This document shows positions 42,001 to 48,000 of a DNA stretch of 64,000 nucleotides, in pieces. A program made the position numbers. Location of the stretch: NCBI GenBank assembly GCA_963701095.1, contig OY969564.1, positions 224,001 through 288,000 of the forward strand, written 5' to 3'. This DNA comes from an uncultured Methanoregulaceae archaeon. Lineage in GTDB: Archaea; Halobacteriota; Methanomicrobia; Methanomicrobiales; Methanospirillaceae. How positions within the stretch are numbered: the stretch's first letter is position 1; each line of letters starts with the position of its first letter.

Positions 42001-45000
42001 TTGATGAAATTCTGCTTGCTGATTCTTTGCTCCGTGACCAATCCATAGTGTGTCTGATTGAGAGTGCAGAAAAAATGAAGGCAAAAATTATCGTACTATC
42101 AACGGAATTTGAACCCGGTGAACGGCTGGAAGCGCTCGGTGGAATCGCCGCACTACTAAGGTATAAACTGGGCTAACAGCTTAAAAACAATGATTAGAAG
42201 TTGCATCCTCTGATTTTCAAGAGAATAGAACTTAATTCTTCCGAAGAAACTCTAATAAAAAAAAATTAATTAGTCTTCTTTCTTTTCCGGTCTTTTGTAG
42301 GTTTCAACCAGCGTTATCTCTGCAATGTCAGCGATGGTCTCAAAGCCTTCATGCAGGATACGGCCATGCCATAGGAGCCAGCGCCGGTCATAGTTTATTC
42401 CGGGTGGGAGATTTATGGTAGCTTTTCCGTTGTCAAGGGAAACTTCCATGTCTTTACCGGCATAGAGCCTGATGATGCCCTTTAACTGTTCAAGGGAATC
42501 AGATACAATCTCTTCGATCTTGTAATGGTACGAAAGCGTCTGGCCTGCGAGCGGAGCATTAAAATCAACAATGACCCGGGACCCGATAACATCAACGACC
42601 ACACCCTCGCCCTGATCTTCTACATTAATATGCATGCCACGTACCGGCTTGTCTTTGAACTTGTTCTTCGGGTACGACTGGACTTTTTTGGTGTCCCGTT
42701 CGCCAAAAGCCTTCTCAGGTGGTACGGTTACATCAGACTTCCGTTCCGACTTTCTTTCCGACAAGTTCCTCATCCAGGCCGGTAATAACATGTTTCTGGC
42801 CTACACAGATAGTGACAGGACCGTAGATCGCAGAAGGACTGTGGATGCCAGCAGTCTTTGCTTCTTCTTCGTCCGTTGTATCAAAAACCAGACCATTGGC
42901 AGTTCCTGTATAACTGAGCTTAACAAAATCTCCATCTTTAATCGTCATAACTTCACCTGACTATATTAAATCGCAACAATGACAGATAAAAGTGTGGCAC
43001 GATTATGCTCGAAATAGAACTTAAAGTAAAGGTAGATTCTCTCGATTTCGTCCGCCAGAACCTCATGAGCCGGCATGCTGAGTTTTTGGGAAAACAGCAT
43101 GAGCATGATATCTATTATAACGCTCCGCACCGCGATTTCGGAACTACTGATGAAGCCCTGCGTGTCCGGTACACAGATGGCCCTGCGCTCATCACCTATA
43201 AGGGAAAGAAAATTCAGGATCTCGGTCTTAAGGCCCGGGAGGAACTCAACACGGGTGTGGAATCCGGTGAGGTATTCGAACAGATTCTTGATAGACTCGG
43301 ATTTAAGAAAACTGCAGAAGTCAATAAGTGGCGGGAGAATTACCGGTTGGGAAATGCCTCTTTTGCACTGGATTGCGTAGATTTTCTCGGTACATTTGTC
43401 GAAATAGAAATAATGGTAGAAAACAGTGCAAAAGATGCAACCGGTAAGATTATGAGTTTAGCAAAAGAGATGGGAATTTCCGGCGAGCCTATTCTCGCCT
43501 CCTATCTTGAATTACTTCTCGCTACACGGTAAGTAATTCAACCTTGATGTCTTTTGCCTCGTTTCCAAAATGGAGCATGGCACAGTACCCGTCCATTGCA
43601 GGACCGGGGTTAATTATTTTGACACCATCAACATCCTTGACACCACGTTGCTCATGAATGTGGGCACAGCAGATAAGATCGAAGTCTTTTAGATGGCGTC
43701 GGATGCTTTGGCTTCCTACATGTTCACCATTGACAAGATCGAGTGTCTCAAAGGGTGGCGCATGAGAGATAAGAACATTGTGCAATGCCTTTTCCATTTT
43801 TACCATTCCCTGGTGAAGTACATCATCGATCTGCTTGTCAGTCAGCTCAAACGGTGTGTTAAAAGGGGTGGGGTTGGAACCGCCTACACCAACAAGTGTC
43901 ATGGTTCCCAGATTAATCTGGGCTCCGTGGAGGCAGACTGCATCCGAGTGTTCAAGCGTATCGAGGATCTCTCTAGGGTCACAGTTTCCCGGTACCGCAA
44001 AACAGGGTACATCAATGCGGGAGAGGACATCGTCAACTGCGTCCACAGGACCCATATTGGTGATATCGCCGGCGATAAATACAGCTTCTGGATTGAGTTC
44101 CAGAAAAGAATCAATTTTACCGAATTGACCGTGGAGATCTGCTATCAATAGCACATCTTTCATGGTATATCATTTCAAATGCCGTCTAAAAAACCTTATC
44201 GCCCGGATAACAGGAATATAACAGACGTAAAATTTGTTTTAATCTTTCAAATTGTAGTGATAAATCGGATATAACGTCGTAATCTGCGGATTTGGCGGCT
44301 CTTTTATGTTAAAACAAGGGATGTAATCGCGCACACTTCGTAAAATCTCCGGGAATCATATGGCGATATATTCCCCTATACTCCGAAAATCGCTGCAGTT
44401 CCTTGCATGTTAAAATCAATTACACTCCCACCGTTTGTTTTGCATAAAAGGGTCAGGAGACACAGTACCGTAACTCTTTCGGACCTCGGTACAACCTTTT
44501 TAGAGGGGTTTTTCCAAAGCCCGATTTTTGTCTGTCCATATAGGGGCCTGCATGGATATATCCGTTCGATGAAAGAGATAGAAAAATACATCCATTGGGT
44601 GTTCAATTTTACCCAGGTGATTTTTGCCAGTATTTCAATTCGAGCAGCTTTCATTTCCATTTTGAGCATATATAACCTGGAAAAAAGCTGATGGTGAAAC
44701 GAAAAGATCTTTTCCGTTATGAAATGAACGTTTGGGAACTCTTTTAAGGTAAGGAAATACCGGCTCGGCGATCAAAATCAAGGTGAGCGCTCAAACCTTT
44801 CAAGATTCATGATCTCTTTTGCTGTTTTGATCGTGGTTGGGGAATTCTAAAGAGTATTGTCATTATTAATCTTGATGGAAGGAATGTTCTTACTATCAAA
44901 TATAAATATTTGTAATGCAATTATGATCTTGTAGAATGGAGGAATGATGCCAGACACATTGCTTAATTCGAGAACTTCTCTCGGAAACAAGGTACTCGCG

Positions 45001-48000
45001 AAGCCCCAACAGAAATCGAGGGGCACAATAACACGATTATGCTCGGTTACTGCATCGGATATTTTGAAGCGGTTGATCTACTCTAGGGCGGAATGACGAA
45101 TGCTCACACGTGTGAGGCGAGTTAAGAGCACGAACTCCTCCGCAATTACACGTGCTTTCGGCAGCTAGTCCCGAACCGGGAGTTGGATAAAACAGCTTGT
45201 GGCGAAAGGGGAAGCATGCACCCTTATTTTCCTGCAATATCCCTTGCACGAGCAAAACATGCAAAGATCGGTGATCATCTGCAGGAATCTAATGACGAAA
45301 TCCGGACTATAGGACCAAACCAATCAGGGCCTGGTAAAATTTCATAGACGTAAGAATTGGAGGTATCGTACAATGAAACGACAAGTGGCAATTTACGGAA
45401 AAGGCGGTATCGGCAAATCCACGACTACCCAGAATACGGTAGCGGCACTGGCAGAGGCAGGAAAGCATGTTATGGTCGTCGGATGCGACCCTAAAGCTGA
45501 TTCGACCCGGCTTCTCTTGCATGGTCTGTGCCAGAAAACAGTTCTGGATACATTGCGGGATGAAGGCGATGATATAGATCTCGATGCTATCCTTAAACCC
45601 GGGTTTGGAAATACCCGTTGTGTTGAGTCGGGAGGACCAGAACCGGGTGTTGGATGTGCCGGCCGTGGTATCATCACATCTATTAACCTCCTCGAACAGC
45701 TCGGGGCATACACTGACGATCTTGACTATGTTTTCTATGATGTACTTGGTGATGTCGTCTGTGGCGGATTTGCTATGCCGATTCGTGAGGGAAAAGCTGA
45801 GGAGATCTATATCGTCGCGTCTGGTGAACTAATGGCATTGTACGCGGCAAACAATATCGCAAAAGGCATCCAGAAGTATGCTACGAATGGAAAGGTCAGG
45901 CTCGGCGGTATCATCTGTAACAGCCGGAAAGTCGATAACGAACGTCCCCTGCTTGAGGCTTTCGCTAAAGAACTCGGTATCAGCTCATCTATTTTGTCCC
46001 TCGTGATAACCTGGTCCAGAGAGCGGAGATCAACAAGAAAACGGTCATCGATTTTGACCCAACGTCGGGGCAGGCAAACGAGTACCGGAACTTGGCGAAA
46101 GCCATTGATGAGAACAAGTTGTTCGTAATACCAAAACCGATGAAACAGGAACGACTCGAAGAACTCATGATGCAGCATGGATTCCTCGATGTTATGTAAA
46201 AGGCTGTAATTCGAGATTTTAAGAAAAAACCTGGCGGATGTGTGATTGTGTTATTAATACGTGCAATTGTTCGACCGGAGAAGAAAGATGAAGTTCTTGA
46301 GGAACTTTCTTCTGCGGGATTTAATGCGGCAACAATGGTAGATGTCGTCGGCCGTGGAAAGCAGAAAGGCATTAAAATCGGTGGCATGGTATACGACGAG
46401 ATCCCGAAGATCCTAATTCTTGTCGCGATCCAAGATGCGGACAAGGAAAAGGTCATCAAAACGATCTTAAAGACCGCAAAGACGGGGACCGAGGGGACAT
46501 TTGGTGACGGGAAGATCTTTGTTTCCCCAATCGAAGAGGTCTATACCATTTCAAAGGGTATTCAAGGACTCTAGGGAGGACTGCTATGAAAGAGATTATG
46601 GCAGTCATCCGGATGAGGAGAACCAGCGCCACAAAAAAAGCACTTATCGCAGCAGGCGTGGCTGGTTTTACCGCGGTCAAGGTGTCCGGCCGGGGCAGGT
46701 TGGTAACCGATCTGACACAAATAGAAGAATGCAAAGAGAAGCTTCTGTCGATGGGCGTCAATGACTTTGGCGGGGTAGAAGATACCGAAAAACTGGTAAC
46801 GAGTTTCCTCAATGGTTCGAGGTTCTTCCCCAGAAGGCTCTTTAAGATCCTTGCTCACGATGAGGATGTGCCCCGTATTGTGGATGCAATAACCTGTGCT
46901 AACAAAACCGAATACGGCATTGGAGACGGTGTGATCTTTGTATTGCCGGTTCTCGACGCGGTTCGTGTTCGCACCGGTGAATCAGGAGAGGCAGCGATTT
47001 GGTGAGGTGACATAAGCTATGGCAGACACTGAAAGTACAATCGACGAGATGATGACACCATACCCGGAGACGGTCAAGAAAAACCGGAAGAAGCACCTCA
47101 TCATCAAGGATGAGGAGGCTGCATGTTGTCCCCAGATCGAAGCGAACACAAGAACTATCCCCGGCATCATATCACAGCGAGGTTGTGCATACGCTGGATG
47201 CAAAAGTGTTGTTGTTGGTCCTATCAAGGACATGGTGACCATTACCCACGGTCCGGTAGGTTGTGGATATTATAGCTGGGGCACACGCCGGAACAAGGCA
47301 AGGGCAGATGATACGACACCCAATGACAAAATATACTCCCAGCTCTGCTTCACCACCGACATGCAGGAACCGGATATCGTCTTTGGCGGTGAGAAGAAAC
47401 TCGCACGTATGATAGATGAGGTTGTTGCCGCGTTCCACCCGCGTGCAATCAATATCTGCGCAACATGCCCGGTCGGGCTTATCGGAGACGATTTAGGTGC
47501 GGTTGCAAAAGCGGCAGAAGAGCGGCACGGGATCCAGGTGCTGGCCTATAACTGCGAGGGTTACAAGGGGGTCAGCCAATCGGCAGGCCACCACATTGCA
47601 AACAATAATGTGATGGAAAAAATTGTCGGTAAAGGAACCGAGCGAAAACCTGGTAGGTTTATCATTAATCTCCTTGGTGAATACAACATCGGTGGCGACG
47701 GTTGGGAGCTTGAGCGGATCCTTAAGGAGATCGGCTACATCGTTAATTGCGTCCTTACCGGGGATTCAAGTTACCTTGACATAAAGAACCTGCACCTTGC
47801 GGACTTAAATCTCGTCCAGTGCCACAGATCGATTAATTACATCGCTGAGATGATGGAAGCAAAGTACGGAACACCATGGCTGAAGGTCAATTTCATCGGT
47901 ATTGACGCAACAAACCAGTCTCTACGCCAGGTCGCGCGATGTTTCGGGGACGAGGAACTTGTCAGGAAAACCGAGGAAATTATTGAGCGGGAGACCGCCC

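Follow-up and report, generated by a model that had tools for sequence, protein, structure and literature searches.

The nif operon leader in a Methanoregulaceae archaeon contains a conserved cis-acting structured RNA, a hairpin confirmed as real by compensatory changes beyond relatedness and by a strand bias. The leader itself is very probably the 5′ third (about 100 codons) of an older nifH, which stayed behind on the 5′ side as the present nif operon replaced it. The window, that is, the whole stretch of DNA that was analyzed, comprises 64,000 nt, and its relevant features are compiled in the table. An initial annotation had named an NrpR-type box, a TATA box, a ribosome site, an upstream ATG, and a hairpin with a bulged core in the leader of nifH, and all of them were recovered in place.

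Features of the nif leader and operon (positions count along the window)
Feature	Position	Strand	Basis or remark
Putative NrpR-type operator	44877-44890	+	sequence; GGAA-N6-TTCC form, one mismatch; directly 5′ of the TATA box
TATA box	44900-44908	+	sequence
Ribosome-binding site of the remnant (GGAGG)	44938-44942	+	sequence
Upstream ORF, 49-50 codons, very probably decayed codons 1-50 of the older nifH	44944-45096	+	sequence, relatives
5′ arm, with the lower stem and the core half at 45087-45097	45067-45097	+	from Leu-Leu-Leu-Gly-Gly-x codons, NifH residues 47-53
Variable cap, 70 nt	45098-45167	+	eroded NifH codons 53-88
3′ arm, with the core half at 45168-45177 and the lower stem	45168-45198	+	from Gly-Pro-Glu-Pro-Gly-Val-Gly codons, NifH residues 88-94
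Spacer, unconserved, untranslated	45199-45358	+	rich in A (33%) and poor in U (20%) across relatives
Ribosome-binding site of intact nifH	45359-45363	+	sequence
Intact nifH, His-Gly-Leu clade	45373-46199	+	ATG at 45373
Operon remainder: nifI1, nifI2, nifD, nifK, nifE, nifN, 2Fe-2S ferredoxin, AnfO-like gene	46242-53813	+	

The operator was read from the GGAA-N6-TTCC consensus, which we take to be that of NrpR. It lies 202–221 nt 5′ of the hairpin core in most full-length leaders, and the genome has two matches to the NrpR regulatory domain, so that the sequence combines a putative operator beside the TATA box with nrpR in the same genome, as in an NrpR regulon. Transcription would start near 44930. 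A ribosome-binding site and an ATG or GTG are present in 55 of 56 leaders, the remaining one having no start by the rule used. The gene order of the nif operon is identical in relatives, and an aCPSF1-family gene is present in the genome. Near 45975, nifH has an apparent frameshift that probably reflects an error of the assembly, and the contigs of all four RNA runs (see below) have one additional base at 45975.

The long hairpin with an invariant bulged core and a variable cap, as initially described, was upheld. The region 45064–45199 was predicted to form a single rod of −45.1 kcal/mol (z −2.22); the whole leader folds no better than shuffles (z −0.33). The consensus core consists of a 3-nt bulge, three pairs, and a 2-nt bulge. 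In an alignment of 36 leaders, which was built by MAFFT independently of any covariance model, 90.1% of the cells pair and 10 of 18 pairs show two-sided changes. This pairing was matched by none of 500 shuffles, and slid controls paired at 22–53%. Counted on the tree, there were 11 double changes versus 0–2 in slid controls and 26 co-changes versus 12.3 ± 2.8. G-U pairs outnumber A-C combinations (148 versus 35), a bias on the coding strand. Wobble bases are conserved to 100/100/84/100/93% in 56 leaders, compared to 75/50/50/50/52% in 44 nifH genes. Fourteen positions are invariant; among them are three unpaired A's and G-C pairs without any covariation. The core fold is at most 3 kcal/mol from the best rival fold in 33 of 55 leaders, but no single rival fold is conserved across the leaders and rival partners are scattered; a small hairpin of the 3′ arm alone is possible in 37 of 56. 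A kink-turn, the binding site of L7Ae, has a 3-nt bulge and then tandem G-A/A-G pairs on a Watson-Crick C helix. By alignment inspection only, a tandem G-A register exists, which leaves an extra A and mismatches, and a G-C/G-U change at 33-194 favors a plain helix.

The position of the hairpin is fixed in the leader of one gene set. The initial annotation had found it in 10 of 71 genomes from five genera and only upstream of nifH; the restriction to nifH leaders was borne out, but the range is wider. The hairpin occurs once per genome in 41 of 151 family genomes from seven genera, namely those carrying this nifH, and was not found in the other 110. All 15 of 15 held-out leaders had it, whereas nifH leaders of other families lacked it; it precedes one metabolic operon only, and a second copy was not found in the window's genome. 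Synteny at 20 loci, examined for a partner of the hairpin, revealed no hairpin-specific gene adjoining the nif cluster. An order-wide model search yielded weak matches in 8 of 121 genomes of other families (E 1e-6 to 0.02), which proved to lie in coding sequence, nifH-like or other, or to be chance sites; their inspection led to recognition of the leader's origin. A loose core pattern over GTDB had nifH downstream at 4 of at least 120 loci, and the rest looked like chance, so the matches listed are uninformative on the range beyond the order. Rfam 15, searched with 2 kb at E 10, returned one match, to a eukaryotic lncRNA (E 7.5), which does not overlap the hairpin, and 13 further loci (four with hairpin) gave no match at E 1, in agreement with the initial statement that Rfam holds no such family. 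These searches support that the nifH-linked cis-acting structured RNA is new, while supplementary tables of ncRNA screens could contain the motif.

The view of the leader as a candidate cis-regulatory RNA was thus strengthened as to structure, but the leader is not ordinary intergenic DNA and instead very probably decayed nifH. A nifH DNA profile matched 26 of 43 leaders at E<0.5 but none of the 39 upstream controls or the 43 shuffles, and one leader (L007) aligned with nifH nt 2–282 at E 1.9e-9. The distance from start to core is 134–147 nt in most leaders versus 147 nt in nifH. As expected for a pseudogene, the homology is collinear with nifH from the start codon onward and is interrupted by indels and stops. 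The window's own copy alone matches nifH weakly (E 0.3, 3′ block only), and therefore the nifH assignment rests on its relatives. The best profile was Methanosarcinales-like, matching 26–28 of 45 hairpin leaders and 6 of 6 and 6–7 of 8 other remnants, but this profile is broader and thus favored; the Gly-Gly of the remnant, versus His/Asn-Gly, agrees with the assignment. It is well supported that the promoter, the ribosome site, and the start codon of the older nifH were retained. Codons for Gly-Gly are complementary to those for Pro-Glu-Pro, the corresponding stretch of intact nifH pairs at 59–60% in the same register, and its duplexes are as strong as those of the leader (−21.8 versus −20.3 kcal/mol). 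Because the invariant core is made of nifH codons, part of the pairing potential was inherited.

Remnants of nifH without the hairpin also occur in other methanogen lineages, often with the stop abutting nifH: the remnant ends no more than 20 nt from nifH in 5 of 6 and 4 of 8 hairpin-less cases versus 2 of 55 hairpin leaders. Some hairpin-less remnants are uncoupled from nifH as well (L191, L225, L232, L234, and L235), and other families manage with a short nifH leader. Therefore, nif expression does not generally depend on either the hairpin or the remnant.

The upstream ATG had initially been noted as opening a peptide that is not conserved. The peptide is indeed nearly free, but the ATG is not incidental. 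In the window, the ORF may start with ATG at 44944 or 44947, is shifted by one base, and terminates at a UGA within the helix core. Its frame is open to 15 nt or less from the core, or beyond, in 52 of 55 leaders, compared to 10 and 17 for the other frames; the remaining three stop early, and stop positions range from −15 to +243. The dN/dS value is 0.64, versus 0.04 for nifH, and the peptides are near shuffle identity (median 0.51 versus 0.48 at the DNA level). Gln, Glu, Asn, and Arg codons showed no excess over the other frames, and masking the upstream ORF left the predicted access to the nifH ribosome site unchanged (0.55 versus 0.55). The frame thus appears to be selected for openness, whereas its peptide is nearly free. 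The gene call in this leader (g00317) is spurious, as had been claimed, if it denotes the 75-aa antisense ORF, but not if it denotes the sense ORF of 49–50 codons, the frame of which appears to be selected to stay open. An open antisense frame spans the hairpin in 15 of 56 leaders, and which frame it is varies among them.

Four wetland metatranscriptome runs provided contigs without strand, start, or level, and the contigs are thus weak evidence for start and strand. In all four runs, contigs start at 44945–44949, at the start codon of the remnant, and none of the matches listed covered 44514–44944, a weak hint on the transcript start. Leader, hairpin, and nifH lie on one unspliced contig in each run, which hints at their co-transcription. 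A joint from 45186 to 45360 in run X1, with a 20-nt side, was rejected as splicing; judging from a loose end, it comes from another organism's leader.

The leader RNA probably controls the message after transcription initiation. Our tentative proposal, which we hold with slightly less than even confidence, is a translation-gated, factor-bound helix that would decide the survival or elongation of the nif transcript. The complementarity of the Gly-Gly and Pro-Glu-Pro codons would have been fixed as an RNA helix in this family. Ribosomes would load at the start of the remnant, cover the first ~140 nt, and always reach the 5′ arm, so that the marginally stable helix could form only behind or between ribosomes. 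The invariant bulged core would bind a specific factor, most likely a protein, and helix and factor would decide whether the transcript survives and is elongated over the untranslated spacer into nifH, possibly by shielding it from aCPSF1/FttA or a ribonuclease or by exposing it to them. This would add a translation-sensitive check after initiation to NrpR, in a role like that of the trans-acting sRNA154 in Methanosarcina. No terminator was found in the spacer or in the spacers of relatives, and U-tracts were not enriched; in the absence of these, of a conserved rival fold, and of a change in ribosome-site access, no classical switch is visible.

It is also conceivable, though somewhat unlikely, that loaded ribosomes and the helix constitutively protect the nif mRNA at its 5′ end and that nothing is sensed. 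The strong ribosome site at the extreme 5′ end, the lack of a visible switch, the U-poor spacer, and the reported stabilization of the M. mazei nitrogenase mRNA by sRNA154 (PMC9765008) would fit. However, a merely thermodynamic block should permit covariation of the core and drift of the bulges, and columns 30–35 and 192–199 show 0–1 changes on the tree.

We consider a riboswitch unlikely, in which the bulged core would recognize a small ligand (ammonium, glutamine, 2-oxoglutarate, molybdate, or a cofactor) and the helix, thereby stabilized, would hold the ribosome on the remnant and shut off nif. The fourteen invariant positions, the variable cap, the marginal stability in context, and the confinement to one metabolic operon would fit, but no expression platform (terminator or occlusion of the ribosome site) was found, the core is small, confined to one family, and without a match to an Rfam riboswitch, and 2-oxoglutarate is described as already sensed by NrpR and NifI (PMC9765008). 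The specific version, an archaeal nitrogen- or molybdenum-sensing riboswitch made from displaced nifH codons, the bound ligand of which holds the ribosome on the dead frame and uncouples transcription, is doubtful as well; were it true, the nif operon would be governed by the remains of its predecessor.

Trimming or splicing of the leader, with the hairpin as a self-cleaving RNA or a bulge-helix-bulge substrate of the tRNA-splicing endonuclease, is very improbable: the bulges lie on opposite strands, and a strict 3-4-3 motif exists in an alternative register in 9 of 56 leaders, but the consensus is 3-3-2, no register is common to more than those nine, and the main contig passes through the hairpin without a joint in four of four runs, although contigs drop rare forms. 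That a small NifH-derived protein is conserved, the pairing being a by-product of its Gly/Pro/Leu codons, is largely refuted. In 32 of 55 leaders, the blocks keep the NifH frame, dN/dS is below 1, and 11 of 44 intact nifH blocks fold at z<−2, in addition to their pairing in register. Against this, 23 of 55 leaders have a shifted frame up to the core, cap lengths (41–109 nt in relatives, 104 nt in intact nifH) fall into all three classes modulo 3, conservation of the wobble bases exceeds that in nifH itself, and the peptides are near shuffle identity. Equally remote is a DNA-level element (a split protein site or cruciform) or a neutral remnant kept by gene conversion: two short invariant blocks 3′ of a promoter would fit, but their spacing varies over 41–109 nt without helical phase, the G-U over A-C bias is on the coding strand, and the leader has no excess similarity to its own nifH (0.604 versus 0.604).

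Taken together, the ancestor of an RNA motif is very probably known codon by codon. The ancestral state (intact Gly-Gly nifH), the intermediate state (helix-less coupled remnants), and the finished state are all present in sequenced genomes, so that the emergence of a structured regulatory RNA can be tested directly. The results point to a hitherto undescribed control of nitrogen fixation after initiation in a common group of wetland methanogens and suggest that swapped nif operons in methanogens repeatedly retained the 5′ end of the old gene as a translated leader.

Known systems share single traits with this leader. In bacterial leader-peptide attenuators and Rho-gated leaders, such as trpL, tnaC, and mgtA, as in the nifH leader, an upstream ORF (here presumably translated) enters a leader structure before a metabolic operon. 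Unlike these, the nifH leader has an open ORF without sensing codons, a conserved (arrest) peptide, or a terminator/antiterminator pair, is archaeal, has an invariant bulged core, and very probably stems from a dead copy of the gene that it would control. The glutamine (glnA) and Moco riboswitches are likewise structured leaders of nitrogen or molybdenum genes, but they adopt multi-way junction folds, whereas the nifH leader is a bulged rod without an Rfam match to the hairpin at E 10 or E 1. EndA substrates also have opposed bulges flanking a short helix, but theirs is 3-4-3, whereas the hairpin is 3-3-2 and is not excised in the RNA contigs. General accounts of translated bacterial leaders are available (PMC13675443, PMC8116511), one of which speculates that translation is coupled to factor-dependent termination by the archaeal aCPSF1/FttA (PMC8116511). 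In M. mazei, sRNA154 is described as stabilizing the nitrogenase mRNA under nitrogen limitation and as carrying a small ORF (PMC9765008, PMC11456600). Both would be RNA-level elements at nitrogen fixation, but sRNA154 acts in trans via loops, whereas the hairpin lies in cis and its conserved bases pair mutually, and it lacks an Rfam match. Translational coupling by termination-reinitiation has been described (Huber et al. 2019, PMC6728339), and the hairpin-less nifH remnants, whose stop often coincides with the nifH start or shortly precedes it, resemble such cases; in contrast, just two of the 55 hairpin leaders are still coupled, and their upstream ORF is very probably a pseudogene.

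A nifH of this type (89–100% identity) was present in 41 of the 151 genomes of the family Methanospirillaceae. The hairpin core was found in all 41 leaders, and it was absent from both leaders of Anf/Vnf-type genes (66–68% identity). A covariance model trained on 36 of the 41 leaders, which match by construction, gave matches at E<0.001 in exactly these 41 genomes, representing 7 genera, and in none of the remaining 110. There was one match per genome, except for a single additional marginal 185-nt match (E 9.4e-4), and 15 of 15 leaders outside the training set matched at E≤1.8e-13. 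No leader match better than E 0.3 was obtained for 21 nifH loci from four other families of the order Methanomicrobiales (at one of them the nifH start is not clear) or for 37 further nifH loci, mostly from other orders of the phylum; the better matches at these loci lay within the coding region of nifH. A strict core pattern retrieved 82 partly redundant loci from metagenomes, 57 with nifH downstream, 4 cut short and otherwise complete, and 21 without nifH. None of these 21 exceeded 23 bits, and their matches spanned just the core; 9 true loci tested alongside scored 57–92 bits. Among the matches listed, named records belonged to Methanoregula, Methanoregulaceae, and Methanospirillum. An Rfam search yielded nothing relevant. 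In summary, the initial annotation of a new structured RNA, tied to nifH leaders, lacking an Rfam family and unmatched in other families, was verified, but its range has grown from five genera to 7.

Covariation was quantified on a MAFFT alignment independent of the covariance-model fit, with an RNAalifold pair list extended by hand. Pairing was observed in 90.1% of the cells and two-sided changes in 10 of 18 pairs, so the pairing first seen on a model-fitted alignment persists without that fit. On a noisy nifH tree covering 45 of the 56 loci, 11 double changes occurred versus 0–2 for slid partners, and co-changes on one branch numbered 26 versus 12.3 ± 2.8; the 45 pair-breaking events were mostly located in the lower stem. 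G-U cells outnumbered A-C cells (148 versus 35). Isolated hairpins had a mean z of −2.5 (−2.22 for the stretch initially annotated as the hairpin), and the core (two G-C pairs, an AA bulge, three pairs, a 3-nt bulge, three pairs) was formed in 55 of 56. In the context of the whole leader, the core was marginal, being the best fold in 36 of 55 cases, with a median margin of 1.3 kcal/mol. Blocks of intact nifH paired to 59–60% in the hairpin register and formed equally strong duplexes, since codons for Gly, Pro, and Leu complement one another; this is a pre-adaptation for the helix. Therefore, pairing alone is no proof of structure, and invariance and compensation count as proof.

Features of the nif region in the window
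Feature	Position	Basis or content
nifH leader	the 496 nt directly 5′ of nifH	sequence; NrpR-type box, TATA, GGAGG + ATG, rod (the hairpin)
NrpR-type box	44877–44890	sequence; presumed from the operator consensus
TATA box	44900–44908	sequence
GGAGG site with ATG	44944/44947 (ATG)	sequence
Rod core halves	45087–45097 and 45168–45177	sequence
Break in nifH frame	45975	
Further split ORFs	39129–41154, 42270–42948, 58842–59844	
P-II gene and Ser/Thr kinase, with the genes facing them	53887–58717	3′ of the nif genes
Operon order		nifH-I1-I2-D-K-E-N-ferredoxin-AnfO-like

The break in the nifH frame is probably an assembly error, as one additional base restores the frame in contigs of 4 of 4 RNA runs; the further split ORFs may be errors of the same kind. 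The P-II/kinase pair faces genes on the opposite strand, namely another two for P-II, one for a PP2C phosphatase that is split, and one for an amino-acid transporter; none of 19 other loci examined showed this arrangement beside nif.

The motif is a real, undescribed RNA with an origin traceable to a dead nifH. The 5′ arm translates as Leu-Leu-x-Gly-Gly and the 3′ arm as Gly-Pro-Glu-Pro-Gly-Val-Gly, the distance from start to core equals that from Met1 to residue 50 of NifH, and the longest caps (98–109 nt) approach the 104 nt of native nifH. Weak model matches in other families fall within nifH-like genes. A nifH DNA profile matched 26 of 43 leaders at E<0.5, compared with none of 39 upstream controls and none of 43 shuffled sequences; one leader (L007) aligned along nifH nt 2–282 (E 1.9e-9), and the window's own leader was among the weak matches (E 0.3). 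The remnants scored best against a Gly-Gly type nifH profile, which is also the broader one. Every intact nifH of the order that was examined has His-Gly or Asn-Gly at the core site, and these genes form a clade with Sporomusaceae and Methanomassiliicoccus proteins (support 100/98). PMC8399215 likewise describes Methanomicrobiales and Methanocellales nitrogenases as clustering with Firmicutes, separate from Methanosarcinales. We infer that a resident nifH was probably displaced and its promoter captured by the present gene; an ancient tandem duplication of nifH is the alternative.

Hairpin-less remnants were found upstream of nifH at 6 loci from three families of the order and at 8 loci of another family (f14), presumably Methanocellales. 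The former (L189, L191, L193, L194, L197, L043) comprise about 100 codons, 5 of 6 are open up to a stop 13–20 nt from nifH despite heavy amino-acid change, and their consensus fold is weak. In f14 (L225–L229, L232, L234, L235) and at L251 of family f15, shorter remnants lie between the NrpR-type box and the intact gene, and stop and start abut in several; in f14, 4 of 8 stop within 2 nt of nifH. The stop is near nifH in 2 of 55 hairpin leaders and at least 85 nt away in the remainder. That hairpin-less remnants usually stop at nifH and hairpin leaders rarely do suggests that the remnant was first a coupled translated leader, the downstream part of which was later taken over by the helix. Types are mixed at L043 and L251, where a nif-type remnant (little decayed at L251) precedes an Anf/Vnf-type gene, and at L021, where an Anf/Vnf-type remnant precedes the hairpin.

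The remnant protein is not what selection keeps, because 23 of 55 leaders carry a shift in the frame up to the core, dN/dS is 0.64 (11 pairs) versus 0.04 for nifH, both without transition correction, and the core wobble bases are more conserved in the leaders than in nifH itself. The peptide of the upstream ATG is thus not conserved, as originally stated, but its frame is kept open, at least as far as 15 nt from the core, in 52 of 55 leaders, compared with 10 and 17 for the two alternative frames, and in 53 of 55 of the metagenome set. Among leaders of <60% identity (with L021 and the short leaders excluded and the starts of L023 and L033 assigned manually), it was open in 18 of 18, versus 0.17 each for shuffles, the kin not being independent. 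Gene conversion as the cause of conservation was rejected on test. The frame with a one-base deletion goes with U at core position 37 in 18 of 19 cases, creating a UGA stop in the core, a link that may reflect shared ancestry. In the L021/L224 leader, the start of the Anf/Vnf-type remnant is fused to the hairpin, and its frame also ends at the core UGA, apparently reached by a separate route.

Contigs of 4 of 7 listed wetland metatranscriptome runs were compared with the leader. In 4 of 4 runs, a close-strain contig starts at 44945–44949 and continues unbroken through the hairpin into nifH, although contigs reveal neither start, strand, nor level; positions 44514–44944 are covered by none of the listed pieces. 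Run X1 additionally contains the leader of a second organism, apparently ending in the 3′ arm.

Five loci of family f6 (L201, L202, L203, L205, L221) carry a different conserved leader about 330 nt upstream of nifH, with an extended hairpin at the 5′ end, a short GC stem and U run, a ribosome site and short ORF, and additional hairpins. This candidate second regulatory RNA had no match in Rfam, and the corresponding NifH proteins group weakly with Sporomusaceae proteins. In other families of the order, NifH-like fusion genes (L175–L177; about 450–600 aa or more) lie beside ABC transporter genes. Four look-alike NrpR-type palindromes in G000:C1 (at about 704711, 928017, 1548587, and 2535498), with a similar AT-rich motif downstream, are probably a repeated element and not nitrogen promoters.

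In almost all leaders, ribosomes starting at the remnant would have to enter the 5′ arm, and the helix would therefore be gated by translation. The invariant bulges point to a specific partner; a neighbouring partner gene was not found beside the nif cluster. The genome contains an aCPSF1-family gene, and PMC8116511 proposes, speculatively, that ribosomes and aCPSF1 exclude each other. On these grounds, we tentatively favour, as the most likely role, a factor-bound checkpoint that decides whether the nif transcript survives or is elongated. A constitutive stabiliser is unlikely, and a riboswitch slightly more so. The leaders have no terminator, U-tract excess, ribosome-site switch, or sensing codon run, and neither a conserved rival fold nor a conserved bulge-helix-bulge is evident. 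A full-text literature search, with subscription journals and supplements outside its scope, found no description of the motif, nor of remnants of nifH in the leaders of methanogens. Taken together, the motif fits no known family and would act like a translated-leader control element.
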